Shown: piece after piece, positions 26,355 through 63,058 of the stretch
Layout of the letters: each line of letters opens with the position of its first letter
Position numbering within the stretch: position 1 is the first letter of the stretch
Source: an uncultured delta proteobacterium
GTDB lineage: Bacteria; Desulfobacterota; Binatia; UBA9968
Length of the DNA stretch: 64,000 bases
NCBI GenBank assembly: GCA_963737905.1
Contig: CAVTUQ010000001.1
Location: forward strand, 32,001-96,000
Reading direction: 5' to 3'
Notes under the pieces: model-generated
Database searches by the model: none
Seen by the model: only the letters and a program-made list of their open reading frames with translations
What the model was told of the DNA's origin: nothing
Position numbers and translations under genes: made by a program

Positions 26355-26407
26355 TGGCCAGGGACAGAATCGAACCGCCGGCACGAGGATTTTCAGTCCT
26401 CGTGCCG
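26355..26407 (-). repeat. tRNA-Phe(GAA) 3'-half remnant / att-like site, copy 1
   Basis: minus strand GAGGA-CTGAAAA-TCCTC GTGCC GGCGG TTCGATT CTGTC CCTGGCCA; no D-arm; perfect 11-bp inverted repeat around the 7-nt loop. Confidence 0.85.
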
Positions 26408-26829
26408 TAGCGGGACTATGTGACGCTATCGGTCGCTATTGGTATCTATTCAAGCGTTTAACGGCGGTTTTCGGAGCGTGATTTTACCGATTCGAACGCA
26501 TAGTGACATATAGTTCTTTCAAAGCACATTCAAAGCAGCCTATTTTGAAGTCCGCTCGCTTTTTCTTCCGGCAGGCAGGACATGCACCTTCCATTGGACA
26601 AAACAAGCACAGCCGAGATCGGCCCTCGCCTTGCAGGCGGCCTTTGCCGATATTAATATCCACAAAAGCCGATCTGTATATTACTGGTTGAACTAAACCG
26701 CTTCGCGGTGGCTGTGGTTGCGTAGGGCCGGTTGTTTTCACTCACCTTTTGTTTTCCATTTACTTCCTGGCTCATTATGATCATCTGATTTAGCGTAGCT
26801 CCCAGATTTAAATCCAAGGAGGATTTTTT

Positions 26830-27642
26830 ATGGGAGCACTACGAGAGAAGATGATCGAGGAGATAAGGCTACGCAACTTCTCGCCGAGAACTGAGCACTC
26901 CTACGTTTCGGCAATGGTGGGGCTGGCCAAGTATTACCGTCAGTCACCGGATCAACTCAGTCAGGAACAGATCCGGGCTTATCTGTTGCATCTCAGAGAA
27001 CGGGGTTTATCGCCAAGCTCGCGCAACGTGGCGATCTCGGGGATGAAGTTCTTTTACCAACAGTGTCTGGGGTGGAACGAAAAGCAGTTATTCATTCCGC
27101 CGAGAAAACGGAGCTGGCAATTACCCGAGGTGTTAAGCCAGAAGGAAGTCGAGCGATTGCTGTTGGCTGCCACAACGCAACGCGACCGTTGTCTGTTGAT
27201 GACCGCCTACGCCACAGGGCTAAGGGTAAGCGAGCTGGTCAGGCTCAAAGTCAGCGCCATCGACAGCCACCGGATGATGGTGCGGGTGGAACAGGGCAAG
27301 GGGCGCAAGGACCGCTACACGACTTTATCCCAGCGGCTGCTCTGTGAACTGCGCTTCTATTGGAAGGAGCATCGCTCGCCGACTTATTTGTTTCCCAATC
27401 GAAAGGGCACACCGATCTCGATCGACTACGCCCAGAAAACCTACAATCGGGCGAAGCTTCGGGCTGGCATTGAAAAAGGGCACGGGATTCATACGCTCAG
27501 GCACTGTTTTGCTACTCATCTTTTGGAAGCCGGGGTGGATCTGAGAACCATTCAGACGCTATTGGGTATACCTCTTTGCTCAGCACAGAGCGTTATTTGC
27601 AGATTCGCCAGCATCGGATCACAGTCATGGCCAATCCTTTAG
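26830..27642 (+). CDS. tyrosine recombinase (IntI-related, IS91-associated), frameshift near C-terminus
   Basis: YATGLRVSE, GKGRKDR, HTLRHCFATHLLEAGVDLRTIQ.LLG; STERYL in the next frame. Confidence 0.9.
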   Translation: MGALREKMIEEIRLRNFSPRTEHSYVSAMVGLAKYYRQSPDQLSQEQIRAYLLHLRERGLSPSSRNVAISGMKFFYQQCLGWNEKQLFIPPRKRSWQLPEVLSQKEVERLLLAATTQRDRCLLMTAYATGLRVSELVRLKVSAIDSHRMMVRVEQGKGRKDRYTTLSQRLLCELRFYWKEHRSPTYLFPNRKGTPISIDYAQKTYNRAKLRAGIEKGHGIHTLRHCFATHLLEAGVDLRTIQTLLGIPLCSAQSVICRFASIGSQSWPIL

Positions 27643-27679
27643 ATTTACTGCGGCTACGGACTAAGAAGGCAGAGTCGCA

Positions 27680-28830
27680 GTGCTGTCGCGCGCGCATGGG
27701 CGAGCGGCAGGACAGACCAAGGGCCCCCGAGCTAGCCGATATTTTTCGCCAATACGGGCAGAGCTACGCAAGACGCATCGATTATCGGCCGCTCAGCAAA
27801 AGGTCATGCGGGCCGTTGAGACCTGTCGCACGGCGGAATTGGGAGGGCATCTCAAGCAGTGCGACAGGTGCGGCTTTGAGCACCGAGTTATAATTCCTGC
27901 CGTAACCGCCACTGTCCTAAATGCCAGTCGCTGGCCAAAGCCAAGTGGTTGGAAAAACAAACCGCTGAGCTTTTGCCGGTGGGATACTTCCATCTAGTGT
28001 TTGCCTTGCCGCATGAATTTAACCGGCTGATCCTCGCCATAAAAAGATTGGCTTGAGTCTTCTGTTTAAAGCCGTCAGTGAAACGTTACTAGAGTTTGGC
28101 CAGACACGTCTTAAGGGAACTCTCGGAATCATCGCCGTGCTTCATACCTGGGATCAAACTCTCAAAGATCATTTTCATCTGCACTGCCTGGTTCCCGCGG
28201 CGCCTGTCTTTGGATCACAGCCGTTGGATTGGAGCACGGCCAAACTCTGTTTCCCATCACCGCTCTGTCCCAGGTGTTTCGGGGAAGTTTCTGGCTTTGT
28301 TACAACAGGCCTGTGAAAAAGGAAAAATCCCGGCGGCTACCAACGAGACTAAAGCCGCACGCCAAAAGAGCTGGGTGGTCTACGCCAAAAAGCCGTTCGG
28401 CTCTCCACAAACCGTGCTTGATTACCTCGGCCGCTATACCCACCGCGTGGCGTTGTCCAACGAGCGCATCCTTTCGGTCCAAAACGGTCAGGTCACCTTG
28501 AGTTATCGAGATCGCAAAGATGGGGATAAAAAAAAGACGGTCTCTCTTGAGGCCCAGAATGATCCGTCGCTTCCTGCTTCACGTCTTGCCTGATGGCTTC
28601 ATGCGCATCCGTCACTTCGGCTTCTTAGCCAACCGAGCCAAGAAGCATGCGCTCCCTCAATGCCGAAAGCTCTTGGGGCTAGTGCTGCCCTGCCCGAGCT
28701 TCCTAAAAAATCAGCCCACGATCTTTTGCTGGAACTTTCCGGCATCGATCTTTCTCGCTGCCCTCGTTGCCTGAAGGGAACCCTGATCGTCATTGGTGAG
28801 CTGCCGAAGGTGTCGCGACGGATTCCTCAT
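27680..28830 (+). pseudogene. IS91-family (Y2) transposase, several frameshifts
   Basis: CRTAELGGH..CDRCG, CRNRHCPKCQ, LHTWDQTL..HFHLHC, YLGRYTHRVA, RFLLHVLPDGFMRIRHFG spread over frames. Confidence 0.88.
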
Positions 28831-29065
28831 GACAAAGAGTTCACCTAACTTTACGACTCTCAATCCGCCGGGGCGCGGGTGCGTCTGCCTGTGCGAAAAA
28901 ACAACTCCCAACCCGCACCGCAGCGTCCTCACCAGCGAAAATTGACGCCACCGCTCTCTACCCGTATCTCACTGGCATTCTATCTTTATCCCAACTGCCG
29001 TCCCCGGCCATCTTGCGCATAATACAATCCCCATAGTCGAAACTGCACGGCGGCTACGCGGTTTA

Positions 29066-29159
29066 GTCCAACCCGTTTTATCCCCCCGTTGAACCTTAGC
29101 CCATCTCTCCGAGGCTTGATTGCTTCCAGGCTTTAGGGATAAAACGCTATACGTTCGCC
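29066..29159 (+). other. attC-like site
   Basis: GTCCAAC...CGTTTTATCCC/GGGATAAAACG stem...GTTCGCC. Confidence 0.5.
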
Positions 29160-29299: not shown

Positions 29300-30179
29300 A
29301 TGACTACGGAAGGGAAAAATGCCGCTGCCGAAGAGGCGATCACGAAGGAAGCGCTAACCCGCTACCAAGCTACGACGGGCCCCCGCCTGCGCGAGATCAT
29401 CTTGAGCCTGATCAAGCATCTGCATGGCTTTGCGCGCGACGTGCGGCTGACCGGCGACGAGTACCTCTTCGCGATGAACTATCTGGTCCAGCTGGGCGGT
29501 TACTGCAAGGGCGGCAGGCAGGAATTCCTCGCGCTCGCCGAGATGCTCGGGCTCGAAACCCTGGTGATCCAGATATCGCAACCGAAGCCGGAAGGCGCGA
29601 CGCTGCCGGGCGTGCTCGGACCGTTCTTCCTTCCGAACGCACCCTCTTTCGCGAACGGCGCCGACATCGCCGAAGACGTCGCGGGCGAGCCTCTCTACGT
29701 CTCGGGGCGTATTCTCGCGATCGATCGTCGGCCTGTTCCAAACGCGACCATCAACGTCTGGCAATCGGACGGGCGGGGACTGTACGACGTGCAGGGTGAC
29801 CTGGCCAAGGACGGAATGCGGACGCGGGGGCAATTGAAGAGCGAGCCGGACGGTCGCTATTCGTTCTGGACGGTCGTCCCCATCGGCTATCCAGTCCCGA
29901 ATGACGGGGGGATGGGCGACCTGGTCAAGTATACCTCGAACGGGGGCTGGCGGCCGGCGCACGTTCACTTCATGATCGAGGCCGATGGGCCACGACACCC
30001 TGGTGACGCAAATCTGCGTGCGTGGCAGTGAGTACCTCGACCGGGACGCTGCCTTTTCGGTACGGGACGGGCTGATCGCAGACTTCCCGCGGCATCAGCC
30101 CGGTAAGGCGCCTGACGGCCGCCAGATGGATCGCCCGTTCCACACCATGGACTACGACTTCGTATTGACCCGCGCATGA
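29300..30179 (+). CDS. intradiol ring-cleavage (hydroxyquinol-type) dioxygenase, frameshift near 29990
   Basis: PRLREII..L.KHLH, LGPF, VWQSDGRGLYDVQ, WRPAHVHF; TLVTQI..YDFVL in next frame. Confidence 0.88.
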
Positions 30180-30251
30180 TCAAGGGCGTCATGTTGGAGG
30201 ATGAAAAAGTCCCGGTGAGTCAACTCCAACCTATGCCACGGGGTAAGGCAG

Positions 30252-30312
30252 GCCGAACAAGCCGCTGCAGACCGATCGCTGAAAAGCGCGCCGGCTGAGC
30301 GTTACGTTAGCC
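30252..30312 (+). other. integron attC site
   Basis: GCCGAAC AAGCCGCTGCAG...GCTGAGC GTTAC GTTAGCC, 61 bp, R''/L''/L'/R' layout. Confidence 0.75.
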
Positions 30313-30332
30313 AGACTTCTTGGTTATCAATT

Positions 30333-30854
30333 ATGAATGAAGCACCAGTCCGCGTCGTACCCTACGATCCGACATGGATCAACAAGTTCGAGAGCGAAAA
30401 AGTCTTCCTTGAGAAACTTCTCACACCTTGGCGAAATGGTCCAATCGAACATGTTGGGAGCACCGCCGTAGTTGGTCTTTGCGCAAAACCTGTCATAGAT
30501 ATCATGGCCGGTGTGACGTCTCTCTCGGAATCTGAACCGGCCAAGAACATCCTATCCCAGGCGGGATATCAGTACGCTGAATACAAAACGGACGTCATGC
30601 ACTGGTTCTGCAAGCCGTCATTCATCATGCGAACCCATCATTTGCACCTCGTTCCGTTCGAGAGCCCACTGTGGTACGAGCGCTTGGCGTTTCGAGACCT
30701 TCTCCGAACGAACTCTAAAGTGGCAGAAGAATACGCCGCCCTAAAGCAAGAGTTGGCTTGCAGGTTTGAATTCGACAGGGAAGCTTATACCGACGCAAAA
30801 TATCCATTCATTATGCGTGCGCTTGGTTTTCCTAGAACTGAGGGGGCTGGCTAA
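30333..30854 (+). CDS. GrpB/UPF0157 family protein (gene cassette)
   Basis: VVPYDPTW, IEHVGSTAV.GL.AKPVIDI, FRDLLR, YTDAK; bounded by GTTAGCC and GGCTAAC. Confidence 0.9.
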   Translation: MNEAPVRVVPYDPTWINKFESEKVFLEKLLTPWRNGPIEHVGSTAVVGLCAKPVIDIMAGVTSLSESEPAKNILSQAGYQYAEYKTDVMHWFCKPSFIMRTHHLHLVPFESPLWYERLAFRDLLRTNSKVAEEYAALKQELACRFEFDREAYTDAKYPFIMRALGFPRTEGAG

Positions 30855-30966
30855 CAACAGGAACAGAAGGTAGTCCGGAATGTTCCGGTCCTGCTAATCT
30901 AATGCACGTCTAACCCGCCGCTTGAGCCGGGGCGCAAGGCACCCGCTCGGGTCGCCTGATCGCGCA

Positions 30967-31954
30967 CGCAATCGAATGACAAGAGCAGAGGACTTTGAAT
31001 TCTCTGTGCGGCGCATTCGTTCAGAACACATAGCTGGGAAAGTAATTACTGTCAGAGAGAGAGCCGCGAACACACGAAGGAAAGGTTTGCTGACCTTTCG
31101 TGTTCGTGGCGGCTGTGCTTTGTGGGTCTATCGGCGATATACTGACTAGGTATATTGGAAGCAAGATGACAACAGTTCAAAACGCCGGTTGGCTCCTCGA
31201 TCAGCTTGAAGACCCGTTTACGATGTTTCCCGTCGAGAGCGTTGCAGACACTCTCTTCGAAGCCGTTGATGAGGCCGAGAGGGGGAAGTGGGAGCGCATA
31301 GGACCCTGGGAAGGCAGCGTGGCGAGGAAGTACTGGTCGGTTGAGCAAGAACACTGCCACGAAGTGATGGGGCTTCTCGTTGGTGCAATATTCGTGCTTG
31401 GGCAGGCTGCCATCACGCAAACGGTTTCCATATTAACCGAGTTGAGAAGGCACCCGGAGGCGCGGAACGTGATTCCCAAGAAGAAAGCGAGCAAGCTGAT
31501 CGCACATGCCGCGACAGAGGACAACACAAACCTCAGCAAGATCGTCATCGTCGACGCGGTAAGCAATTATTTCAAGCATGTCTACGAATGGCCCGAACAG
31601 TGGAGCAATGTTCGGACGAAGGACTCCGGGGCAGAGACGATTAACATCGTGCTCCAACTTGGGATGGAACCAGGACAAATGACGGACAACTTGCTTCTTG
31701 CCGCCGACCGGCTGGGGTTATGTCAGAGTAATCCACGGGCACTCGCCAGAAGCATTCAAGAATGGCGAGAGGGTTGGGCGAGGGCGCTCTACGCTTCATT
31801 CGGATTGCCGGACCCGAACTTACGCGGTGTCTGATAATCACTGGTCAGACGGATTCGACTCCTCTGGACTATTACCCCCCACCTCAAAGCGACAGAGCGA
31901 GGACGGAACCACTCGCAATCGAATGACAAGAGCAGAGGACTTTCAATTCTCTGT
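30967..31954. repeat. 41-bp direct repeat pair (30967-31007, 31914-31954), 1 mismatch
   Basis: CGCAATCGAATGACAAGAGCAGAGGACTTT(G/C)AATTCTCTGT. Confidence 0.9.
31166..31834 (+). CDS. hypothetical protein between direct repeats
   Basis: long ORF, ..NYFKH..EW motif; no family recognised. Confidence 0.7.
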   Translation: MTTVQNAGWLLDQLEDPFTMFPVESVADTLFEAVDEAERGKWERIGPWEGSVARKYWSVEQEHCHEVMGLLVGAIFVLGQAAITQTVSILTELRRHPEARNVIPKKKASKLIAHAATEDNTNLSKIVIVDAVSNYFKHVYEWPEQWSNVRTKDSGAETINIVLQLGMEPGQMTDNLLLAADRLGLCQSNPRALARSIQEWREGWARALYASFGLPDPNLRGV

Positions 31955-32151
31955 TCCGCTCTAAGGACAAGAAAACACAAATGTTTTTTTTGACTTTGTA
32001 GTTGCTTTGAAAGAGAGCGGAGTAAAAAAGGTCGAATCATGCCGCGATTCAGACACGAATCCGCTATGATGCAATTACGTCACTGTCTCTGCTATCATCT
32101 GACCTAAGAACGTCGTGGGATTCCAATCCTAGGAAAAAACAGGCGCTCATT

Positions 32152-32595
32152 ATGGCGGGCATTAAAGGTAGATCGGGACCACCGGGAAATCAGAACAACT
32201 TCAAGCACGGGCTATCTGCAATTGAGAAACGACGCGAGTCAGGCTTGATCACCGCACACGAGGACGGCATTCGGACGGAAATCCTGGCTGGGCTGATTCA
32301 GGATAAAGGCGGAGAGGTACAGATAAGCACCAGCATGCGGGTGTTGGCCGAGATAATCGCCAGCGATGTTTCTCTGTTGGTCAGCTTCAACCGCGCCATC
32401 GAGGCCGTCATCCGAAACAACGCGAAGGCGAGAGAGAATCCCAAGGCGCTGGCACAGCTGGACGGGTACAAGCGCCCGTTGGTGGGCTCCCTGTCGGCGA
32501 ACCTCCAGCGGTTTGGCATGGACAGGGTGGCCAAGGTCGAGACGCTGGAAGAAATCTTCAGCGAGGACGATGAAACCGGCGAGAATCCCACATAG
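32152..32595 (+). CDS. terminase-small-subunit-like protein, copy 1 (intact)
   Basis: MAGIKGRSGPPGNQNNFKHGL motif; paralogues at 50846 and 62813. Confidence 0.6.
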   Translation: MAGIKGRSGPPGNQNNFKHGLSAIEKRRESGLITAHEDGIRTEILAGLIQDKGGEVQISTSMRVLAEIIASDVSLLVSFNRAIEAVIRNNAKARENPKALAQLDGYKRPLVGSLSANLQRFGMDRVAKVETLEEIFSEDDETGENPT

Positions 32596-33596
32596 GATTG
32601 TCCAGAAACGATGAACCAAGCCGGGCTGAAGTCCTGACTGTGCTATTGGATTGTTGTAGCTCTCTTGATCTGGGAAGCCGGACCGTCGGAACCGGAAACC
32701 ACCAATTACCCAGTGCCGACGCCCGGCCCAGAGGACAATCACCCGTTCTTTCCGAATTCCCGCCACGCCGTAGAACGGCTCTTTGTCCGAATGTCTTTAG
32801 CACCGGCAGCGGTCCCAATCCCAGGCCCATCTGTCCTCCTGAGTTTTGATGGTGGGACCACTATTCAGTCCAGATAGATATTTCAACTTCTCTCTGAGTG
32901 TCTCGCCGCATGATCTCAATCTTTCGGTAGTCAGCGGCGGATAACTTTGTTTACACCATCATATCCCCAAGTAGACGTTGGCTTCCAAAAATAAGTTAAC
33001 TTTACGAAAAGGAGCCTTAATTTTCTGCGAATTAGTCGATCCGTACCATCAATCACGTTTGGCATCGGGATTGCCTTGTGTAGTTCGCAGTACACATCTA
33101 CCACGCAAGGGAGGTCAGGTCCTACAGGCAATGGAGGTGACTTATGGTCCACAAGATGATCGTCTCCGCAATCATTGCTGGACTTCTCGGTGGATATATT
33201 GCGCTGCTATACGCGTTTTTCCAGACTGTGGCTCTTATTGATCATTCCTATTTCATGAGTTCCGCAATGTAGTGGCAATAAGACTGGACCAAAGTACATC
33301 CTTCTCGGAAGCCTTTTCGGATCGAAAGGATGCGGCTAACGGGCGTACATCCTGACACGGCGGGCGGAGCCAGTCGCGGCATTGACACGCGCAAACTTCC
33401 GCCGGACCGCTGTACGGAATTTGGAAGGGCCGGGTTCCGAGCCTGCCGCCATGACCACGGTTGGTCACCTGACGATGAGCATTTTATTCGCGGCTACATG
33501 AGTTCGACCAGGCTCAGACAACGGGCACAGTAGATGACGAAAATGGAAATCAGCCGAGAGCACAGAGCTTACAACATTCCTAAAGAGAGAGGAATG

Positions 33597-33641
33597 TGGC
33601 CGGGACAGAATCGAACTGCAACACGAGGATTTTCAGTCCTC
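33597..33641 (-). repeat. tRNA-Phe(GAA) 3'-half remnant / att-like site, copy 2
   Basis: near-identical to 26355-26401, followed by the same leader. Confidence 0.85.
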
Positions 33642-33818
33642 TTACTGTACCGAGACTATGTGTCACCATCGGTCACTATCGGTATCTATTCTAGCGTTTA
33701 GCGGCGGTGCGCTGACTTTCATTTTACCGATTCGAACACATAGTGGCATATAGTTCTGGCAAAGTTGTGGCAAAGTCAATCAAACCCGTTCGCCCCAAGT
33801 TGTCTCAACCCCAGCCGA

Positions 33819-33865
33819 GTGGGCCGCCGAGACTCGTACTCCGGACCCGCTGATTAAGAGTCAAG
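33819..33865 (-). repeat. tRNA-Lys(CTT) 3'-half remnant
   Basis: minus strand TGA-CTCTTAA-TCAGC GGGTC CGGAG TACGAGT CTCGGCGGCCCA. Confidence 0.75.
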
Positions 33866-34009
33866 TCCAGAACGGACCACCACGAAATATTGACAAGCAG
33901 GGCCAACTATTCGAAGTCCGCTTTCCTTTTTTTCCGACAATGGAAGGTCTATGTTCCGCCCAGGTTCAGGCACAAAACAAGCACAGCCGTGCGTGACGTG
34001 TGAGGAGAA

Positions 34010-35005
34010 ATGAATAAGCGGAAACTCGGTAGCTTTGCTCTATACGCCATGCTCATTGCTCTTGGCTTCCCAGCCGAGGCGCAGCAGCCGAAAAAAATCC
34101 CTCGGGTAGGCTTTCTATTATCGCCCTCCTCATCCGCTGACCCGGAGCGCACCGAAGCATTCCGCCAGGGTCTGCGCCAGCTTGGCTACGTGGAGGGTCA
34201 GAATGTCATCGTGGAATACCGCGATATGCGGGAGGCAAGGTCCACTGAGTATCCCAAGCTAGCTGCTGAGTTGGTCCGCGGTCTCAAGGCGGACCTCATC
34301 GTCGTAGGGGGCGGTACTGGTTTGGCTCGTGTGGCGAAGGAAACGACCAAGACTATTCCCGTCATTATGACAGGCGGTAGCGATCCGGTTGCCGCTGGGC
34401 TTGTTGCCAGCCTAGCGCGGCCAGGGGGAAACATCACAGGGCTAACCGGTATTACCGCAGAGTTAGCGGGCAAACGGCTGGAACTGTTAAAGGAGACCTT
34501 GCCCAGGCTCACCCGCGTCAGCGTGTTCTGGAATCCAGCGGACCAAAGTTCCGACCAGGGCTTTAAAGAGATAGAAATCGCCGCTCCGACATTGGGGTTG
34601 GCGGTTCAATCGCTTCAGGTGCGGAACCCCAGCAATTTCGAGAGTGCATTCAAAGCAGCCATTGCGGGACAAGCTCGCGCTCTCCAAGTTCTGCCGAGTG
34701 GCCTCGTCAATAGTCAGCGGACCCGCATCGTAGAGTTTGCGACAAAGAGCCGATTGCCAACGATGTTCGCGGATGCTTCGCAAGTCGAAGCAGGTGGGCT
34801 TATGTCGTACGGGCCGAACGCTCCTGACTTATATCGCCGCGCGGCTACCTATGTTGACAAGATCCTCAAGGGCGCCAAACCCGCCGATCTCCCGGTGGAA
34901 CAGCCGAAGAAGTTCGAGTTCATCATCAATCTGAAAGCCGCAAAGCAAATCGGTCTGACGATTCCGCCGAATGTGCTGGCGAGAGCCGATAAGGTGATCA
35001 GATGA
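34010..35005 (+). CDS. ABC_sub_bind-type substrate-binding protein
   Basis: AFRQGLRQLGYVEGQN, DPVAAGLVASLARPGGNITG, GAKPADLPVEQP. Confidence 0.92.
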   Translation: MNKRKLGSFALYAMLIALGFPAEAQQPKKIPRVGFLLSPSSSADPERTEAFRQGLRQLGYVEGQNVIVEYRDMREARSTEYPKLAAELVRGLKADLIVVGGGTGLARVAKETTKTIPVIMTGGSDPVAAGLVASLARPGGNITGLTGITAELAGKRLELLKETLPRLTRVSVFWNPADQSSDQGFKEIEIAAPTLGLAVQSLQVRNPSNFESAFKAAIAGQARALQVLPSGLVNSQRTRIVEFATKSRLPTMFADASQVEAGGLMSYGPNAPDLYRRAATYVDKILKGAKPADLPVEQPKKFEFIINLKAAKQIGLTIPPNVLARADKVIR

Positions 35006-35282
35006 GTCGAGAGACATGCATGAGGGCAACGGAGGCTGGCCCACGGAGGACGACCGGACATCGAATTGAGAATGCACCGCTGACTGAACAGAAGTTCCCA
35101 TTGACCCCTGCTCGCGATATACGATGGCGAGACAAACACTTTATTGCCAGTTAAGAGGTCCAACGGAAAAACAACGAGGGAAAATACTCTTGGTCCGAGG
35201 CGCGCTAGGAAAGATGTGCCTCGAATGAGACCAGAGGGTGGCATCCATTAACGTCGAGGGTGATGCTTGGGTGTTACCGAGG

Positions 35283-36140: not shown

Positions 36141-36363
36141 AGTGCCCTCCGAGTCAGAATCCACTGTTTGTCCACCCATGAATGCTGCCATGACGGCAGC
36201 CACACAGCAACACAAAGTCTCGTTCAGGTGGAGCAGCGAGAACGATGCCTGCCGCTGCGCGCCACGCGCTTAGGACGCCAACCTTCAAACGGCTAACTTT
36301 AAAAGCGGACTGGCCCGTATCCTCATCTTTGGGGCAGACAGTATCCGACAAGGTGGCGTTATG

Positions 36364-42616: not shown

Positions 42617-42656
42617 ACGGTCTTGACGCACTCATTTGAAACGCGCTGTGGCCCGG

Positions 42657-51735: not shown

Positions 51736-51757
51736 GTGCTGGATAAGAGGAGCGATC

Positions 51758-52733: not shown

Positions 52734-53095
52734 TCCAGCGCGGACCAGAACAGAACATTAATAAGAATGCCCAACCATTTCGAGGCCCGCTTGGCTTTTT
52801 CTTCGGCAATGGAAGGTGTATGTTCTGCCCAGATTCAGGCACAAAACAAGCACAGCCATGAGGTGAAAGCCATGAGGCGCGAGGGAGAAATGAATAAGCG
52901 GAAGCTCGGTAGCTTTGCTCTAAGCGTGATGCTCCTTGCGCTTAGCGTATCCGCTCAGGCGCAGCAGCCAGCGAACGTTCACAAGATAGGCGTGCTGCGA
53001 GCCGATTCGCCGCCGAATCTCTCGGCAGAGACATTTCAGCAGGCAATGCGCGATCTTGGTTACGTAGAAGGCAAGAATATCGTCATCGAGTACCG

Positions 53096-54560: not shown

Positions 54561-55087
54561 TTTTCAACACCAACAACGCCGTCGTCTCCGCCAACGCCTT
54601 CTCCTTGCGAGAAAGATCTCTCTCCAACTCCTTGATCTTTTTCTTGTCCGCCGCCCATTCGCTGCCATTGGCCGCCGTTAATCCACCGCCCCCCGATTCC
54701 AGCCCCACCTCCATACTCTTCTTCCATCCCGCGATATGTTCGCTATGGAGCCCTTCCCGCCGCAAGTACTCACCCTGCTCTTCTACCTCCAGTCCTTCGA
54801 ACTCGATCACTGCTCTCAGTTTCTCTTGCACGCTTCGATCTCCCGGTCTGCGATGGGCTTTCATCACCTCCGTCTTACCATAGCGCTTGCTCCATTGATA
54901 AAGCGACCAGCTCGATACTCCCAGCACTCGCCCCACCTCTTCCACCGACCGCGATCCTCGATTCTGAAACTTTTCCACTGCCGCTCTTCTAAACTCCTCG
55001 CTCCTTTGTTGACTCACTTGCTTCTTCTTCTCTCTCGCCCCACTTTTCCGCTCTTGCTCCACGCGACATCTATCCTGACATTAGGGG
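53202..55087 (-). mobile_element. IS3-family insertion sequence
   Basis: imperfect IRs containing GATAGATGTCGC / GCGACATCTATC; CCAAG duplicated at 53197-53201 and 55088-55092. Confidence 0.9.
54520..55062 (-). CDS. IS3 OrfA
   Basis: HTH-like N-terminus, LRREGL, LLVLKKKA with an A9 slippery run at the OrfA/OrfB overlap. Confidence 0.85.
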   Translation of the reverse strand: MEQERKSGAREKKKQVSQQRSEEFRRAAVEKFQNRGSRSVEEVGRVLGVSSWSLYQWSKRYGKTEVMKAHRRPGDRSVQEKLRAVIEFEGLEVEEQGEYLRREGLHSEHIAGWKKSMEVGLESGGGGLTAANGSEWAADKKKIKELERDLSRKEKALAETTALLVLKKKADLIWGSGEEQ

Positions 55088-55938
55088 CCAAGAATGCTAC
55101 CAAAACAATCCCTATTGTCATAACACATGTTAGCGACCCTGTAGGATCAGGGCTAGTCGCCAGCCTGGCGCGACCCGGAGGCAACATAACGGGATTGTCC
55201 GGTGTTTCCGCTGGAGCTACTAAGCGGCAAGCGACTGGAGCTTCTGAAGGAGACCGTTCCCAAGTTCTCCCGTGTGGCTTTCTTCGGACCTACCCTCGGG
55301 CAACCACAAACAGTTAAAAGAGATGGAACGCGACGCCGGGGAGTTAGGGGTAAAGCTTCAATACTTAGAGGTACAGAGTCCCAAGGAAATTGAACCCGCA
55401 CTTCTAGCCGCGAGCAAAGGGCGTGCTCAAGCAGTCCTCATAAATAGGAACCCCTTTACTGCTATTCATTACGCACGGATCGCAGAGCTTGCGATAAAGA
55501 ACCGCCTTCCAACCATGTACGCCGATAGGGAGTTCGTCGAAGCCGGTGGGCTAATGTCCTATGGACCAGACTATATCTTTATGTATCGACGCGTTGCCGT
55601 TTACGTGGACAAGATTCTGAAAGGCACCAAGCCCGCCGATCTGCCCGTAGAGCGGCCCATGAAGTACGAGCTGGTGATAAATCTCAAGACCGCGAAGCAG
55701 ATCGGTCTGACGATTCCACCGAATCTGCTGGCACGGGCAGATAAGGTGATTAAGTAAGACGCTGAACACCAGAAGCGGAGGCTGGGTCACACCCGGCGAG
55801 CGGACATCGAATCGTAAATGTCTGCTGAGTGAATATCAGATGTCCCCAATAATGGCCCTGCGTCGCGATATACGCTTGCGAGACGACAGTCGCTACGCTC
55901 AAATTTATGGTTCTTGTCGTTATCCCCCACGATTAAAA

Positions 55939-58900
55939 TCAGCTTGGCGATGATCTCTCAGGTAAGCTAAAGCTGAAGGTAGACCCTTTGCCTATCTCAC
56001 TTTCTACCCAGATCTTTCCCCCATGCAGTTCGACAAACTTCTTGGCTAAGGTTAACCCAAGTCCGGTCCCCTCGACCTTATGTGCATAGTCCGCTCCCAC
56101 TTGGCGGAATTCCTCGAATATCTTTGGCTGATCCTCCGGGGCGATCCCGATGCCGGTGTCACTGACCGATATCTCTACCGAACCATCAGCCTGCCTGGCG
56201 TTAATTCCAATCCGTCCTCCCTCCGGTGTGAACTTCACGGCATTGGAGAGCAGATTAAGCAGGATCTGTTTGATCTTGCGCTCATCACCTATGAAATCGC
56301 CAAGATGCTCGTCAACAGTAACGTCGAGGTTGATCCCGTGCTTGGTGGCCCGCTCGCGCACAAAGGTACGCGCGTTGTCGATTGCCAAGGGCAGATCAAA
56401 CGTAGCAACCTCTAGCTCCATGCGGCCAGCCTCCACCTTGGAGAGATCGAGAATCTCATTGATGAGGGACAAAAGATGGCGGCCGGAAGAGAGGATGTCG
56501 TCGGTGTACTCGGCTTGTTTCTCGTTCAGCTCGCCGAACAGTCTTTCCTCCAAGACTTCCGAGAAACCGATGATGGCATTGAGCGGCGTGCGTAGCTCAT
56601 GGGACATGTTGGCGAGAAACTCCGACTTGTGCCGATTGGCGGCCTCGATCTGACGGCTCTTGTCTTCGATCTCGCGGAACAGTCGGGCGTTTTGGATCGC
56701 CAATACGGACTGGGTGGCGAAGGTTTTCAAAAGCTCGATGACTTCGGGGCGAAACTCGCCGGTGGATTTTCGCCTGACCACCAAGCCGCCAATGATGCGG
56801 TCTTCGCGTAACAACGGGACAGCCAGACTGGCGCGAAAGCCGAAGCGCTCCAGCAACTGACGCATTCGCAGCGCATACGTGTGCTCTTCGAGGATATTGG
56901 GGATTTGTATGGGTTCACGCGTTGACGCTGCCCGACCCACCAACCCGTCTCCCAAGTGCGGCGGATTGGCGCGAAGCGCGTTGATGAGTTCTTCCTCCAT
57001 GTGATCAGTAGCCCTGAGCAAGAACTCTTCGGATTCTTCGTCATATTCGTAAATCGCTCCGCCGTCCGTGCCGCTTAACTGGACCGCATGGGAGACGATT
57101 CTCGTCAGTACGGCTTCGAGGTCGAGAGTGGAGCTGACTACCTGGCTGACTTCGCCGAGGGCTTTGAGTTCGCCTACCGAGCGTGTCAGTTCGTTGGTTC
57201 GCTCATCTAATTCTTTGAACAGCCGAACGTTCTCGATGGCGATGACGGCCTGGTCAGCGAAGGTTTCGAGGAGCTTGATCTGCGCCGGGGTGAAGGGGCG
57301 CACCTCAATGCGACGTGCTGTCAGGTATCCAATGAGTTCCCCCTGTTGTCGAAGGGGAACGTACAAGCCGGTGCGCCAGATACCAGAATGGCCCACCAAT
57401 GGGAAATCGGTCTGCGCTCGCACGTCCGGAATGTGGAGCGTGCCGTGCTCACGCATCCACCGAAAAAATGGTTCATCAATATTGATCTCGACGCGGTTAA
57501 TTGGTATCGGGCCAAAGTGAGCCCGGGGAACTATAACGTTCCCCTCGGGGAGTCGCAGTATCACATCATCAATCCCACAGACCCGCGCCGCGCTCTCGAC
57601 GATGGCGTCCAGAACGGGCTGCACGTCCGTCGGCGAGCGGCTGATGATGCTGAGCACCTCGGCCGTTGCCGTCTGATGCTCTAGCGCCTCGCGCAATTCT
57701 GCATTGCGCTCGCCCAATTCCCGGAAGAGGCGGACGTTTTCGATGGCAATGACCGCCTGCGACGCAAAGGTTTCAAGCAGCTTAACCTGCTTATCAGTAA
57801 AGGGACGAACTTCGGTTCGTCGGACGTTGATCACTCCTATGGAAACACCCTCGCGAAGCAAAGGCGTCGCAAGAATTGTCCGAGTCCCGAAACGTTGTTG
57901 TAAGATTTTGCTTTCCGGAAAGTCCTTATCGCTCTCTGTAGCGAGATCGTGAATATGAACCGTCTGCCGATCAACGATAGCCCGAGTACCGACTAAGCCA
58001 CGAGTAATGGGACGTTTCTCTTCCTGACCGGGTGCTGGCTGTGTACCGTAGGATGCCCATTGGCGAACAAAATCGCCCTCGACACGACTGATTTGCGCGT
58101 CAGTGGCGTCACATAGTCGCGCGGCACTTTCTGCAACGGCATCGAGCACCGGCTGGATGTCCGTAGGTGAACTAGCAATGACACCCAAGATTTCACTTGT
58201 CGCAGTCTGCTGATCCAACGACTCCTTGAGTTCGTTGAAAAGCCGGACGTTTTCGATGGCGATCACCGCTTGGTCGGCGAAAGTCTCTAGGAGCTTGATC
58301 TGCGCTGGGGTGAAGGGGCGCACCTCGATGCGACGTGCGATGAGCCTGCCGATGACTTCCCGCTGCTGACGAAGCGGAACCGCCAAGAAGGTACGAAAGT
58401 TGCCGAGCGGAGTTATTTGAAAATCCATTTGGGCTTGGTTCAGTACATCGGGAATGTGGACCGTACCAAGATGGAGAGTCCAAGGCCTTCCTCCCTCATC
58501 AATACTGATCTCTCGGCGGGCAACTGGTATGGGACCAAAATGAGCCCGCGCAACCATATTGTTTCCCTCATGAAATCGCAATATAAGATCATCTATCCCA
58601 CAAACCCGCGCGGCACTCTCGACGATAGCGTCGAGAACCGGCTCCACATCGGTGGGCGAGCGGCTGATGATGCTGAGCACCTCGGCGGTTGCGGTCTGAT
58701 GCTCCAGCGCCTCCCGTAATTCTGCGTTCCGATCCTGCAATTCCTTAAACAGCCGCACATTCTCAATAGCGATCACTGCTTGGTCGGCAAAAGTTTTTAG
58801 GAGGTTTACCTGTGTGTCGGTGAAGGGACGGGTCTCTTGGCGGCGAATCGTAATAACCCCGATAGGTAGGCCTTCCCGCAGCAATGGCGTGGCAAGAATA

Positions 58901-61470
58901 GTCCGTGTACCCGTAAGCTGTTGGAAAGCTAGAGACTGAGACTCTGGGAACTCGGTTCTCTCTGCCGCCAAGTCATGAACGTGAATAGTTTGCCGGTCGA
59001 CTACGGCTCGGCCGGTGGGCAAACCGCGACTAATAGGTAGAACTTCTGCCGGCGCAGGTACAGGACCATGCTTTGCCACCAGTTTGAGGCTCTCGCCATC
59101 GACGCGATAGATTAGAGCGTTTAATGCCTCGCAAAGGCGGGCCGCATTCTCCGCAACCACATCCAGCACCGGCTGAATGTCCGTCGGCGAACTAGCGATA
59201 ACACCCAAGATTTCGCTCGTCGCAGTCTGCTGCTCCAACGATTCTTTGAGTTCTTGGAACAGCCGGACGTTTTCCAGGGCGATGACGGCCTGGTCTGCAA
59301 AGGTTTCGAGCAGCTTGATTTGCGCCGGCGTGAACGGGTGCACCTGTATGCGACGTGCGACCAGTTCGCCAATGAGTTCCCCGTGGTGAAGAAGTGGAGC
59401 GGTTAAGTAACTGCGCCAGCCGCCAGCGGAAGCCAACATCGGGAAATCGTTCTGCTCGCGAACGTCAGGAATATGGAGCGTACCGTGCTCACGTATCCAA
59501 CGATACCGCGGTTCATCAATATTGATTTCGCGTACATTAATCGGAATGGGACCAAAGTGAGCTCGTGGAACCGTAATGTCGCCCTCGCACAGTCGCAACA
59601 GCATATCATCGATCCCACAAACCCGGGCAGCGCTCTCGACGATTGCATTGAGCACCGGTTGCACGTCCGTGGGCGAGCGGCTGATGATGCCGAGCACCTC
59701 GGAGGTTGCCGTCTGATGCTCCAGGGCCTCTCGTAATTCTACATTCCGCTCCTGGATCTCCTTAAACAATCGCACGTTCTCGATAGCGATGACAGCTTGA
59801 TCGGCGAAGGTTTTGAGCAGTGCGATTTGCTTGTCGGTGAATGGCTTCACCTCCAAACGGCGAATCCCAATGACACCAATGGGAACGCCTTCGCGGATTA
59901 ACGGAGTTGCGAGCATTGTGCGAGTGGGATTAATCTGGCTTAAAGTCTTGGAATCTGGAAACTCGCTTTCAAGCTGTGCTGCGACATCATGAACGTGGAT
60001 CGTCTGCCGATCGACCATGGCCCGACCACTCACCCAGCCACGGCTAATAGGCATTGATTCTTCAATCCCAGGTAGCGGCCCATAATGGGCGACCCGCCGA
60101 AGGTTATTACCTTCAACTCGAAGGATAATGGCATCGTTAGCACCGCAAACCCGCGTTGCGTTTTCGGCGACGACGTCGAGCACCGGCTGAATATCCGTCG
60201 GCGAGCTGGCGATGACGCCCAGGATCTCGCTCGTCGCCGTCTGCTGCTCCAACGATTCTTTGAGTTCCTGGAACAGCCGCACGTTCTCGATGGCGATGAC
60301 GGCCTGGTCGGCAAAGGTCGTGACCAGCTCGATCTGTCGTTCGGTAAATGGCGCGACCGTTTCGCGCCAGATCGAAATCGTCCCAATTGGAATCCCCTCG
60401 CGGAGCATGGGTACAGCAAGGAAAGTGCGTAATCGGACCGGCGGCAGTTCGAAGGTCGGATCTTGTTCAACATCCGGGATATGGATCGGTTTGCGCTCCA
60501 GGAACGCACGACCCGGTCCTGTCTCTCGACCTGGTCGCACTGGTGTCTCCTGGAAGGCTGCCGCCCCTTCAGCGCTGACGTTGTAGTAAGCAACCAGTTG
60601 GAGAAACTCGCCGTCATATTGGCGAATGTGACCGTGCTCGGCCCCGATGAGCCTGACGGCATTTGCAATCACCGTGTCCAGCACAGGCTGGAGTACAGTG
60701 GGCGAGGATGCGATAACCCGAAGAACTTCGCCGGTTGCGGTCTGCTGTTCCAATGCCTCGGTTAGGTCGCGGTTGCGTTCCTGCAACTCTCTGAAAAGCC
60801 GCACGTTCTCGATGGCAATCACGGCCTGATCGGCGAAGGTTTTGAGGAGAGCTATCTGTTTGTCCGTAAAAGGTTGAACTTCCGTGCGTCGAATGAGAAT
60901 CGCTCCAATCGGAAGACCCTCCCGGAGCAGTGGCGCGCCGAGCACAGACCGGGTTCCGTCGCGGACAGCTCGCGACTTGGCGAGTGGAAACTCCACCTCT
61001 GATTCTGCTTGCATGTCGTGGACATGGACGAGCTGTCCGTCGACCACGGCTCGCCCAGCGACGGAGGCACGATTCAACGGGGTTGCATCCGCAGTTCTGG
61101 GAATCGCGCCGAAATGAGCCGCATCGCGAAGAACGTCGCCATCGAGCCGATGAATGATAGCATCCTGTGCATCGATCAAACGCGCGGCATTTTCAGCGAC
61201 AGCGTCAAGCACTGATTGCAGGTCTGTGGCGGAGTTAGCGATAATCCCCAGAATCTCGCTGGTGGAGGTCTGCTGTTCCAATGCTTCCGCGAGCTGACGA
61301 TCACGTTCCTGCAACTTTTTGTCCTTTGCTTCCTCCCGCTGCAAAGATTCGGCGAGTTGCTGGCGTAACTCCGCAATCGTCTGCGCTTGTTCAGCCACAA
61401 GCGTGTTCACCATGGGACGGCGCGGTTTTGCCTTTTTGTTATCAGAGCCTTTTTTGGTCGTGGTTGCCAT
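55939..61470 (-). CDS. giant histidine kinase with 9 GAF domains + HisKA/HATPase
   Basis: 9 [11 protein letters not shown]-type repeats; kinase core nearly identical to that at 36364. Confidence 0.93.
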
Positions 61471-62004
61471 AAAAAACCAACTGGAGACCGTCGCAGGCGA
61501 AACTAAAGACGTGGCCTGATCGGTTTACTTGTGGTAACAGCTCGCCCGGCGGCTGAACTGTCTTTTACGCCAAGGCACTCGGTGGCGTCAAGGAAAGGCT
61601 GCCTTGCCGTGCCAAGTGAAAGGTAGCGCGAGACTTCTGCCAAAACGGGGAGGCGAGGAGCGGTTGCGGATGCAACGTTCCGAGCTGAGCCGCTGAGGAC
61701 AAAATCCGAGATAAAAAAGCCGAGATCCCGTGCAGGCGTAGTAATAGCCGTAAATGCAGGGACTCTAAAGCATGCTTTCTGAATTTTTGGACACCGCGCA
61801 CCCAAGAATAGCCGTGCTGCTGAAACCCAAAAAGCTTGCTTTCCGATTTTGAGTCCCGCGCGCACGTAAACCGCGCCGCTTGGCCCGTCGGTGACGTGGG
61901 TCGGGTGCCCCTGGACTCAGGTTGGTGAAACGGGGGGCTCAATTCTAGCAGTTCTCATCCGCGACGTTTTCCCGCTATGGACGATAGCCACTAGCGAGCG
62001 CAAT

Positions 62005-62505
62005 ATGGTACAATTTCAAGCTAACGAGATGAACGCAAAACACGACGGCGGATTAATCAAGTTCATGCATTTCTCAAACCGGCTTTGTTTTTATGGGATT
62101 GGCCTGATTGGTGTTTTGTTTTTAGTTGCTTATCACGCTTCAGCAACGCTCTTTCCATTCGACTCCGACCTTCTACCGGTATCCGGTACCTTCTTTGCTC
62201 TTATTGCGATTCTATTTTTCTCAATCGATAGAACAATGGAGTCGCAGGCCAGAGAAATAGAGATCGCACATCGCTTTGCTCAGGTATTTTTCGCGTTGGC
62301 TGAAGAAGGCCAAGCTGTCGGTTCCGCAGAGAAAAGGGGCCATACGCGAGCGGCGGCGGAGAAAATCGAGGAACTGAAGAAGAACTTAAAGACCAAAATA
62401 ATAAAGGCTGAGAAGCATCTTCGAAGCGAATGGCGCTTCGTTGTAGTGAGCAGTGTGACTGTACTTCTTGGGTTCCAGGCTGTCCTTTCGAGCCTTAAAC
62501 ATTGA
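62005..62505 (+). CDS. hypothetical membrane protein
   Basis: three hydrophobic segments plus coiled coil; start uncertain. Confidence 0.55.
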   Translation: MVQFQANEMNAKHDGGLIKFMHFSNRLCFYGIGLIGVLFLVAYHASATLFPFDSDLLPVSGTFFALIAILFFSIDRTMESQAREIEIAHRFAQVFFALAEEGQAVGSAEKRGHTRAAAEKIEELKKNLKTKIIKAEKHLRSEWRFVVVSSVTVLLGFQAVLSSLKH

Positions 62506-62666
62506 CGGGATACCCCCACGGAGCCAGTCAGTATAGGTTTGTGAGTGAGCGGCGAAATCACAACGAGGATCGCCTTCTTCCCCCTACGCAATATTCTACA
62601 ACCCCCCTTAACATGATCTAAAACTGGAGCCTATAAACAGCAGAGCACATCGAATACGGCTAGCAA

Positions 62667-62762
62667 ATCGAACCCCACCGACACGAGGACTACTAATCCT
62701 CGTAGCGCGTCTAACCGCAAGAAAACACAATCGAATGTTTTCACTTTGCCACTACTTTGCCA
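62667..62762. repeat. palindromic core site plus inverted arm-like repeat
   Basis: ATCGAAC..CCGACACGAGGA-CTACTAA-TCCTCGT, GTCTAACC, CTTTGCCACTACTTTGCCA. Confidence 0.75.
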
Positions 62763-62812
62763 TAAGTAAACAGCTATGGGAAAATGAATCCTGCTACGTG
62801 GGAAGAAACGAA

Positions 62813-63058
62813 ATGGCTGGATTGAAAGGAAAGAGCGGACCTCCAGGCAACATGAACGCCTTCAAGCACGGGCTGGCGGCTATTCAGAAGCGGCGCGAGG
62901 AAGGAATTCCCACCGAGCACGAGAAGAATGTCAGGCAGCAGATTCTAGACGGCTTGATAGCCGATAAGGGCGGTGACGAGCAGATATCGACGGCCACGAG
63001 GATTCTGGCTAAGGTTATCCGCCTTAGATGCCGCATAGCGCGGACTGGTGAGAACTGA
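62813..63058 (+). pseudogene. terminase-small-subunit-like ORF, copy 3 (truncated)
   Basis: MAGLKGKSGPPGNMNAFKHGL; similarity to other copies stops near 63020. Confidence 0.75.

Follow-up and report, generated by a model that had tools for sequence, protein, structure and literature searches.

The 64-kb window analysed here, positions 32001-96000 of contig C1 of genome G000, holds between 26.35 and 63.0 kb a tandem array of three units (A, B and C), each of which opens with the 3' half of a tRNA-Phe gene and ends with a gene for a small protein, here called GPPGN, that is a candidate small terminase. Our conclusion, to which we give a probability of roughly 0.6, is that the array consists of decayed, accreted, integrase-less islands built from prophage-derived and cargo modules, similar to cis-mobilizable elements (CIMEs) or tycheposons. 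Tandem accretion at tRNA-Phe, followed by loss of the mobility genes, is the simplest account of the scars, arms, site subtypes and recombinase remnants described below. Given that two of the three terminase-like genes are broken, that two insertion sequences (IS) are present, that the last unit is truncated and that no intact tRNA adjoins it, the array in G000 is most likely fixed.

G000 is a metagenome-assembled genome (MAG) of a Binatia-type soil bacterium, a bin of 6.7 Mb in 46 contigs that is 87% complete and 6.7% contaminated. Labels such as C1, C3 and C25 denote its contigs, G001, G004, G010 and G023 are relatives, and L-numbers denote loci or contigs, mostly from soil metagenomes.

ARAGORN finds no whole tRNA in the window and 44 tRNAs in G000, with a single tRNA-Phe(GAA) on C3 (c[25438,25511]). 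Three minus-strand 3' halves of 48-50 nucleotides (nt) in the window match positions 26/27-67/74 of that gene, which bears out the original prediction of three halves in one orientation at 26355, 33597 and 52450, the identities being 95-98%:

26354-26403, minus strand: tRNA-Phe 3' half, copy 1, from the anticodon stem to the acceptor end (26354-26401 at 95.8% identity, E 4e-16), without a P' arm on its left.
33597-33645, minus strand: tRNA-Phe 3' half, copy 2 (33602-33642 at 95.2% identity, E 4e-10), with a P' arm at 33567-33596.
52450-52498, minus strand: tRNA-Phe 3' half, copy 3 (52449-52496 at 97.9% identity, E 2e-18), with a P' arm at 52420-52449.

In every good copy the identity to the tRNA breaks off at one common point, the 5' strand of the anticodon stem, and a common P-arm sequence runs on from there. 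We take the class of recombination to be 'anticodon-loop' sublocation, in the sense of Williams 2002. The sole Rfam match between 26 and 64 kb at E<=1 is a sub-threshold tRNA at 52450-52511 (26.5 bits against 29).

A profile of the site (nhmmer) detects seven Phe-derived sites in the window, at 26354, 33598, 52448, 30957, 31905, 50691 and 62657, and no others above noise; three of these are the good halves and four are degenerate. Together with two fragments derived from tRNA-Lys, all are on the minus strand. The degenerate sites ahead of the GPPGN open reading frames (ORFs) had earlier been described as palindromic. A site is indeed present ahead of each, but it is really a degenerate tRNA-Phe anticodon stem-loop with an altered loop and a TTCGAT T-loop remnant. 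It faces the same way as the good fragments, and its nhmmer E values range from 7e-11 to 1.4e-9.

30957-31013 and 31905-31961, minus strand: degenerate tRNA-Phe arms of unit A (nhmmer).
50691-50744, minus sense: degenerate tRNA-Phe arm of unit B (nhmmer).
62657-62712, minus strand: degenerate tRNA-Phe arm of unit C (nhmmer).
33819-33863, minus strand: tRNA-Lys(CTT) 3' half in leader B, about 40 nt past the paired site.
52697-52731, minus strand: tRNA-Lys(CTT) 3' half in leader C, also about 40 nt past the paired site.

As in a tRNA-integrated island or CIME array, direct repeats of the target tRNA's 3' portion delimit the units, all in a single orientation. In unit A the 41-nt cores of the two degenerate arms (30967-31007 and 31914-31954) are 97.6% identical and flank one plus-strand ORF, unknown, of 244 amino acids (aa) at 31100-31834. 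The native tRNA-Lys(CTT) gene of G000 is at C8:78751-78826.

Two other origins for these fragments were considered and rejected. An integron-like cassette array does not fit the nhmmer result, which shows no extra arm-like sites between cargo genes, and a tRNA-complementary primer-binding site for reverse transcription is not supported by any reverse transcriptase, nor do the bases outside the fragments suit a CCA end. Further tRNA 3' fragments elsewhere in G000 (C12:179871, Val; C15:31677, Arg; C22:106482, Ser) lie 2-10 kb from intact genes and are ordinary island scars.

The sequence to the left of the halves distinguishes inner from outer junctions. The 30-nt P' arm left of 52450, of pattern TCC.AAAGAGAGGGG.ATG, resembles the 30 nt left of 33597 (p=0.002, shuffle test) and is not resembled by the flanks of copy 1 (p=0.40), of a copy on C28 (0.21) or of the native tRNA on C3 (0.05). 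The claim that copies 2 and 3 share sequence here while copy 1 differs is thereby upheld (p=0.002 against 0.40). When the same 30-mer is compared with the tRNA-Phe flank of G023 (L003), with L049 and with L021, its score is reached by 0, 0 and 1 of 3000 shuffles respectively. In G023 the P' arm is formed by the 30 nt after an intact tRNA-Phe, and in L049 and the relative G004 (L021) it stands beside fragment copies. The order in G023 is gshB, tRNA-Phe, P' arm, truncated antisense GPPGN gene, paired site, degenerate Phe arm and ispA; in G000 the tRNA-Phe on C3 adjoins gshB, its site is empty with no element behind it, and ispA is on C25. Element-specific arms thus flank the core and are common to a copy beside an intact tRNA, as in an island or CIME array. 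Since the P' arm recurs beside the intact tRNA-Phe of a relative, copies 2 and 3 are element-element junctions of P'-core-P type, as had been proposed. Copy 1, proposed as the chromosomal junction, is read as the outer junction of the array by its absent arm; that its flank is chromosomal is suggested by that absence alone. A likeness of the copy 1 flank to the native tRNA-Phe flank (p=0.22 against shuffles) was given no weight.

Each Phe half is followed by a leader. The first ~130 nt of the leader, 'part 1' (repeat family D12), recur at 26353-26503, 33593-33743 and 52448-52598, the second and third copies being 72% and 89% identical to the first. The leader-end motif ACAAAACAAGCACAGCC is found at 26598, 33972 and 52841 and at one further place in the genome (C25:10816). 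The leaders are about 260, 392 and 408 bp long and their start-to-start spacings are 7240 and 18855 bp, in agreement with the conserved leaders of 260-410 bp and the unit periods of the original prediction.

26404-26614: leader A, with part 1 (the P arm), a TTCAAAG-type double site at 26520-26535 and a ~70-nt tail ending in ACAAAACAAGCACAGCC at 26598-26614; it has no tRNA-Lys fragment.
33646-33988: leader B, with part 1, a GGCAAAG-type double site at 33760-33775, the tRNA-Lys half and a 'part 2b' that ends at 33988.
52499-52857: leader C, with part 1, a double site at 52616-52631, the tRNA-Lys half and part 2b ending at 52857.

In leaders B and C the order is therefore Phe fragment, part 1, Lys fragment, part 2b. 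A 72-nt module at 26618-26689 is also found after the leader end in soil contigs L081, L117, L102 and L089.

The double sites of the leaders have inverted counterparts ahead of the GPPGN genes. CAAAG-N6-CAAAG occurs at 26520, 33760 and 52616, and CTTTG-N6-CTTTG at 31994, 50777 and 62744; these are exactly six occurrences in 64 kb, against a mean of 0.08 and a maximum of 2 in 200 mononucleotide shuffles.

31994-32009: CTTTG-N6-CTTTG double site of unit A (exact pattern count).
50777-50792: the same, unit B.
62744-62759: the same, unit C.

These three lie about 150, 70 and 70 nt upstream of GPPGN ORFs A, B and C (at 32152, ~50846 and 62813), so the succession of double site and GPPGN ORF does occur three times, as predicted. 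The paired sites always adjoin a Phe scar, and the left and right subtypes agree within a unit (A/A, B/B, B/B).

Twelve PF00589 matches were found in G000, namely two ORFs of ~310 aa (C7, C2), three that are IS91-linked, two other full-length ones (C19, C7) and fragments; the two ~310-aa ORFs are presumably Xer-type. Genome-wide, no PF00589 gene lies beside a scar-bearing locus except an IS91-linked one, and PF00239 and PF07508 have no match in G000, the control genomes having responded as expected. Because the bin is incomplete, this absence holds for the assembly only. The exception is in unit A:

26687-29155, plus strand: IS91-type insertion, with a tyrosine recombinase gene at 26830-27642 (PF00589 4e-36) and a broken Y2/zinc-finger transposase at 27680-27997 and 28096-28593 (PF14319, PF04986).

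The features of the IS91 family, a zinc-finger and Y2 HUH transposase with a tyrosine recombinase ahead of it, are all present in this interval, and an intact recombinase/transposase pair is found in L058. Because the whole 2.5 kb has copies at C25:342541-345059 and C22:19809-22259 and carries IS91-type transposase fragments, we attribute the recombinase region to the insertion sequence; the recombinase is IS91-linked and is not a cognate integrase. The claim that no cognate integrase is in view survives in that none lies in the units or beside the scars, with the correction that a tyrosine recombinase gene is in view. The IS91-linked recombinase aside, there are no integration or transfer genes inside the units, which is the defining property of CIMEs. 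With no recombinase encoded by the units, they could move only with the help of a trans-acting integrase, as in cis-mobilizable elements. An intact tRNA-Phe with an adjacent integrase, sought at the end of the array, was not found there: the sole intact tRNA-Phe is the one on C3, where nothing is inserted.

The third line of evidence concerns the GPPGN genes, which suggest a prophage origin for the end of each unit:

32152-32595, plus strand: GPPGN gene A, 147 aa, intact, product all-helical; candidate small terminase.
50846-51385, plus strand: GPPGN gene B, a pseudogene with ATA for the ATG start and one in-frame TGA.
62813-63019: GPPGN gene C, cut where similarity to unit B ends.

A fourth GPPGN gene in G000, on C25, is frameshifted. 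Of 1258 candidates in 90% clusters, 1206 are relatives of the protein at E<=1e-3, and the 50% clusters contain 718; those that are named are all 'hypothetical', and most are on contigs of 1-4 kb. Of 40 relatives of G000, 3 were found to have the protein. For its surroundings we used the 80 best tblastn matches to the protein, 71 of them non-redundant, a selection that favours intact genes. A large terminase (TerL) gene lies 0.5-2.9 kb downstream of, and co-oriented with, the GPPGN gene in 7/71 non-redundant soil loci (L048, L050, L055, L070, L081, L115, L124), and in 4/11 of those in which 3 kb or more of sequence follow the gene. TerL was recognised by PF03354 (2.2e-7 and 7.4e-7) and by tblastn to annotated phage terL (down to 3e-22), and is followed in soil loci by a ParB-like ORF and a Mom-family gene. 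The position expected of a small terminase gene, directly upstream of and co-oriented with that of the large subunit, is thus seen in soil loci and not in G000, the assembly of which has no TerL.

Two further kinds of evidence point the same way. The nearest neighbours of the GPPGN protein in the ESM-Atlas are unnamed clusters at 0.94-0.95, one of which (0.94) carries PF05119 Terminase_4 on 28% of its members, and a named small terminase (TerS) cluster follows at 0.89. Co-folding of GPPGN and TerL from L081, with alignments, gave a score of 0.57 (runs 0.59, 0.53 and 0.57) against 0.00 for the best control, with at least 57% of contacts in common between runs and a partner pLDDT (predicted local distance difference test) of at least 69. 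The mark was reached by 58/80 solved complexes and 2/110 mismatched pairs, and at scores of up to 0.60 by only 7/80 and by both mismatches; we grade the result as weak support. An AlphaFold2 model of the protein (24-row alignment) is all-helical, with pLDDT 79 and a predicted template modelling score (pTM) of 0.67. A role as recombinase was rejected for a helical bundle of 147 aa with no recombinase fold match. The gene is conserved as protein: the median pairwise dN/dS (ratio of non-synonymous to synonymous change) is 0.14 (913 pairs, 59 distinct genes), the frame is full-length in 67/80 loci, and the median is 0.13 in the 16 loci in which a tRNA-Lys fragment or leader follows the GPPGN gene and no TerL is seen. 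We consider GPPGN a probable small terminase of a phage-derived module, and by position the synteny with the large terminase gives an uncharacterised soil protein family a candidate role.

Two observations were made alongside. An antisense zinc-ribbon ORF of ~135-150 aa lies between the GPPGN gene and TerL (L081:11484-11939, L115:3821-4192, about 20 others); it is present in 13/24 loci with at least 1.2 kb downstream, its family match being a weak CxxC only. Protein P0331, a 702-aa metagenome gene call, carries PF00589 together with the TerL C-terminal domain PF27249; it is a fusion or two merged adjacent genes, and hints that an integrase adjoins this TerL in some elements.

Downstream of the GPPGN gene of unit A is a further conserved part:

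32596-32893: conserved ~300-nt module, 82-85% identical in 8 soil contigs, with two long hairpins.

The module is also found at C25:10290-10660 and in L079, L090, L093, L100, L107, L110, L114 and L125. Its two hairpins never vary, its indels are not multiples of three, and its 42, 46 and 50 variable sites per phase give no codon periodicity. As RNAalifold finds 47 pairs and 0 compensatory changes, there is no evidence that it acts as RNA, and at E<=1 no known RNA in Rfam covers either the module or the leaders.

Whole units with other cargo are found outside G000, in L049 (where two part-1 copies, 94% identical, enclose a sulfatase), L081, L014, L017 and G001 (L020). L049 was considered as a circle and rejected; its ends overlap at 94% and not 100%, which indicates a tandem, and no locus has exact terminal overlaps. 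In L014 and G001 (L020) an operon of a response regulator and a multi-GAF kinase has part 1 directly at its 3' end, and a multi-GAF kinase is also close to part 1 in units B and C and on C28. Of 41 genomes, G000, G001 and G004 were found to have part 1 beyond the tRNA.

The original prediction had named independent scattering of the leader and the TerS-like module as an outcome that would count against it, and this is in part what we see. Part 1 occurs without a GPPGN gene on C28, at three places on C16 and at C1:115360, and on C25 a GPPGN gene occurs without a Phe fragment. In soil loci a tRNA-Lys fragment or part 2b follows the GPPGN gene in 16/59, and a tRNA-Phe fragment or part 1 in 3/59. 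In the intervals C16:34668-39498 and C1:115360-116786, part 1 and the A-type end site are present in additional copies, with no GPPGN gene; the intervals also contain, at C16:38306-39033 and C1:116481-116786, paralogous ORFs of ~100 aa that start MQI(I/V)NESD..WWCY.

Intact tRNAs stand on the opposite strand downstream of the GPPGN gene in L113 (Lys(CTT)), L124 (Ala(CGC)), L120 (Val(CAC)) and L056-L059 (Arg(ACG)), and in three of these four cases a recombinase fragment abuts the tRNA: PF00589 at 9.9e-15 in L058, PF00589 at 5.3e-6 and 26.8 bits, below the cut-off of 27.1, in L124, and a serine-recombinase zinc ribbon in L120. The last is an ORF at L120:11176-12090 that matches PF13408 only (7e-12), beside the intact tRNA-Val(CAC) and 4.5 kb downstream of the GPPGN gene. 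In G000 itself, ordinary islands bounded by tRNA fragments occur at tRNA-Ala, Val, Arg and Ser. The one on C25, of 11.5 kb, is delimited by a 46-nt exact repeat of tRNA-Ala(CGC) (C25:1045-1090, c[12576,12651]), and lacks an integrase; within it lie the frameshifted GPPGN gene, a tRNA-Lys fragment with part 2b and a BON-domain ORF.

Between leaders and end modules the units carry signalling and metabolic cargo, as predicted: multi-GAF kinases, solute-binding proteins, a monooxygenase and transferases were identified when Pfam was run on 30 window ORFs.

29300-30854, plus strand: cargo A, with a catechol-dioxygenase-like gene at 29300-30031 and GrpB at 30333-30854 (Pfam).
34010-50820: cargo B, with ABC_sub_bind at 34010-35005, a luciferase-like monooxygenase at 35283-36215 (minus strand) and a histidine kinase with ten GAF domains at 36364-42381 (minus strand).
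Within 34010-50820: further genes of cargo B, namely TMEM175-like, CDP-alcohol phosphatidyltransferase, class-V aminotransferase, PgpA, EEP-family, NmrA-like, cupin and a methyltransferase fragment.
51434-51646 and 51758-52267, plus strand: a small ORF and an MqsA-family antitoxin gene (TIGR03830, 79.5 bits against a cut-off of 61.8).
52890-61470: cargo C, with ABC_sub_bind split by an IS and a histidine kinase with nine GAF domains at 55939-61470 (minus strand); colinear with cargo B.
53201-55089, minus strand: rve-family IS with a 543-aa transposase, 98.2% identical to C2:480908-482792.

The ORF pair at 51434-52267, beside the junction, is likely a toxin-antitoxin pair. The rve-family IS has been recently active, given its 98.2% identity to the copy on C2. 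Unit C breaks off at 63019, and no tRNA marks its end. The identities between units B and C are 81% in the leader, 72% in ABC_sub_bind, 91% and 79% at the 3' and 5' ends of the kinase, and 84% in the end module. Genes of the ABC_sub_bind family (PF04392) are very strongly expanded in G000, with well over 100 BLAST matches and arrays on C2, C7, C27 and C29, and the relatives are alike in this. Outside the array, an intergenic repeat of ~100 nt at 25132-25238, between glyoxalase-like and NMT1-like genes, has many copies at 78-91% identity in several relatives (at least 8 in G010) and short pieces on other G000 contigs, and may be an element of REP (repetitive extragenic palindromic) or MITE (miniature inverted-repeat transposable element) type.

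Taken together, these observations suggest how the array may have arisen. The stretch from 26.35 to 63.0 kb would be a composite island, formed by repeated site-specific insertion at tRNA-Phe with recombination in the anticodon arm and subject to later decay. A unit would consist, in order, of the tRNA-Phe 3' half and P arm (part 1, with its paired CAAAG site), variable cargo and a prophage-derived end module. The end module would hold an older, degenerate tRNA-Phe scar, the inverted paired site, the small-terminase-like gene, a conserved non-coding stretch or toxin-antitoxin pair, and the P' arm; it resembles the distal end of a prophage-type element that has kept an older Phe scar of its own. 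The Lys fragment with part 2b resembles the P arm of a nested, Lys-specific relative. With such a nested tRNA-Lys(CTT) scar in their leaders, units B and C would be composites of Phe-type and Lys-type elements, and probably diverged copies of one composite; the order of insertion is inferred.

It is important to note that several results weigh against this account. Anchoring at tRNA-Phe has to be inferred, because the sole intact tRNA-Phe is on another contig of an incomplete and contaminated MAG; the proximal end of the array lacks the intact target tRNA that an island or CIME array would have. The GPPGN protein has no match in Pfam, PHROG or NCBIfam and none in a PDB profile search, and Foldseek comparison of its model with PDB and BFVD gave 0 matches at E<=1e-3, the best row for a terminase small subunit being at E 0.39. 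No family profile or fold thus identifies it as a small terminase, and the description 'TerS-like' keeps the indirect support of TerL synteny, language-model neighbours and co-folding while losing that of family and fold. Purifying selection on the gene means that the family is alive elsewhere. Of the soil loci with at least 200 nt upstream, 30/57 have a degenerate Phe arm or paired site no more than 400 nt ahead of the GPPGN gene, and such an arm also lies inside the C25 island, which is anchored at tRNA-Ala. Being conserved in the module and present in islands at other tRNAs, the degenerate arm may be a functional part and not an independent scar. Finally, most soil loci have a Phe-like arm ahead of the gene and a Lys fragment after it, which is not what simple integration predicts. 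Two of these ill-fitting points keep open a bolder reading, in which arm, paired sites and hairpin module are working parts for packaging or recombination.

In its boldest form, which we think improbable, that reading sees a large, as yet undescribed family of integrase-less islands in soil Binatia-type bacteria in which each unit carries a packaging gene and kilobases of metabolic or signalling cargo and borrows a tRNA-specific integrase in trans. The small terminase would read paired CTTTGCCA sites beside a mimic of a tRNA anticodon arm, helper particles would carry the cargo, and the Phe-like arm and the 300-nt hairpin module would be machinery and not scars. Similarly doubtful, in our view, is the related proposal that the array belongs to an active, non-autonomous, satellite-like family, as the original prediction had it, whose units are moved by a helper's tRNA-Phe integrase; the units' own small terminase would read the paired sites, a helper large terminase would package them, and cargo and packaging gene would travel and stack together. 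Conserved ends with variable middles, and the same architecture in several genomes, are what such a family would produce, and the P'-O-P junctions are reconstituted attP-like sites. The size of the GPPGN family (1206 proteins) and the purifying selection on it, which extends to the 16 loci with no TerL seen, agree with it as well, as do the TerL synteny with its weak co-fold support (0.57 against 0.00), and the 97.6%-identical 41-nt scar repeat around a single ORF hints at a recent event. Nevertheless, two of the three GPPGN genes in the window are broken, and the leader copies are only 72-89% alike; copies that differ by 11-28% must be old. The assembly has neither TerL nor a serine recombinase, and none of the copies has an integrase beside it, although short soil contigs cannot prove that TerL is absent nearby. 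The modules occur separately. The GPPGN protein is also absent from the viral sequences searched: in the 2.9 million viral contigs of IMG/VR, 150 pattern matches included 0 relatives, and phage records searched at E<=1 gave one chance-level match only.

Nor did we find evidence of present mobility, the satellite lifestyle that had been proposed being indicated by nothing in the array, with its broken TerS-like genes and cut-off unit C. Among 20 public sequencing runs listed, the best has 0.13 of the words of the test stretch and none reaches half, so that the source sample is not among them. Contigs from other samples (4 runs) contain stretches of unit A that differ at 1-3 positions in several hundred bases, and show only such near-identical or paralogous pieces. 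Candidate excision joints among them (such as 26463>33723 and 33987>26620) were rejected, since they have extra letters at the joints and are paralogous copies from other organisms. A search of the relatives with left flank and cargo for an orthologous empty site found none, the matches being paralogues of NMT1 and ABC_sub_bind genes.

Somewhat less probable again is that units B and C arose as a segmental duplication of one chromosomal segment by unequal crossing-over. Their colinearity and their identities of 72-91% would follow naturally, and identities alone cannot separate duplication from accretion of related elements. What duplication leaves unexplained is unit A, with its other cargo and other site subtype, the P' arm in G023, and the copies on C28 and C16.

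We regard it as unlikely that the mobile unit is a small conserved block of ~1.1-1.9 kb, comprising degenerate Phe arm, paired site, GPPGN gene, non-coding module, tRNA fragment and leader, that was inserted repeatedly in one orientation, the 'cargo' being host DNA in between. In an alignment of nine units, conservation runs from ~20 nt left of the degenerate arm to exactly ...GCACAGCC, with unrelated genes on both sides (ABC_sub_bind, SnoaL-type and others beyond the leader end); the block is contiguous across unit junctions, and many soil contigs break at or near it. The paired-site subtypes at the A/B junction, though, agree across the cargo and not across the block, a single discriminating case. 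Cargo A (query 1-2700), unlike conserved backbone, has no match among the 150 matches listed in 16 relatives at E<=1e-20 (72 more exist), and neither a transposase nor terminal inverted repeats nor a target duplication came to light. Misassembly of strain variants, conceivable in a MAG with 6.7% contamination, is very improbable, given that the copies differ by 11-28% and have different cargo where collapsed variants would be near-identical, and that other-sample contigs carry the pieces of unit A noted above.

The reading of decayed islands accreted at tRNA-Phe can be set beside known systems. The core of the finding is ordinary: tandem integrase-less tRNA islands are a known route of genome growth. 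CIMEs related to ICESt1/ICESt3 of Streptococcus thermophilus have lost integration and transfer genes, keep att sites and stack with later arrivals at one target gene, and their accretion partners include decayed elements and satellite prophages (PMC5704250). Our array is like them in having att-type scars without integration genes, stacked at one target. It differs in that no functional integrative and conjugative element (ICE), integrative and mobilizable element (IME), prophage or intact target gene adjoins it, in the scars of two tRNA species within one unit and in the terminase-like gene at each unit end (PMC5704250). The ssrA islands of Dehalococcoides are likewise tandem, with direct repeats of a small-RNA 3' end, and some of them, lacking integration genes, have been suggested to be cis-mobilizable or fixed (PMC3146451). 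Their target is the tmRNA, their repeat 20 bp, and a serine-recombinase module stands at the edge of many islands (sixteen are cited), as opposed to a tRNA half of ~50 nt and no recombinase here (PMC3146451).

Phage-inducible chromosomal islands (PICIs) and other phage satellites resemble our units in having a small-terminase-type gene near one end and no structural genes (bioRxiv 10.1101/2020.12.28.424599). Integrase, master repressor or regulator and primase-replicase, the marks of a PICI-like element, are absent from all three units, in which the terminase is a candidate and many kilobases of metabolic and signalling cargo are present.

Several features are new here: nested scars of two tRNAs in one unit, cargo and a packaging-type gene in one unit, a large uncharacterised soil family tied by position to a large terminase gene and thus given a testable role, and conserved DNA parts that can be tested for protein binding (the paired 5-mer site, the tRNA-arm mimic and the 300-nt hairpin module). 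The array also indicates that multi-GAF sensor kinases and solute-binding proteins travel as island cargo in an uncultured lineage. A limited literature search surfaced no account of mobile elements in Binatia, and we do not claim that the family is unpublished.

A further parallel is found in the tycheposons of Prochlorococcus, which are tRNA-anchored, with partial tRNAs, degenerate remnants and niche-type cargo, and in which later arrivals push earlier ones inwards (bioRxiv 10.1101/2020.12.28.424599). Integration at a tRNA with partial tRNAs, tandem arrays and remnants are all found in our array. The hallmark tyrosine or large serine recombinase and the replication module of tycheposons are absent from these units, and the host is a soil Binatia-type MAG. 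A PICI-like subset of tycheposons has terS and, according to the same preprint, is never seen with extra cargo, unlike the units described here, in which cargo and a terS-like gene occur together (bioRxiv 10.1101/2020.12.28.424599). Should the units turn out to move, they would represent a soil equivalent of the marine tycheposons with a different gene make-up.

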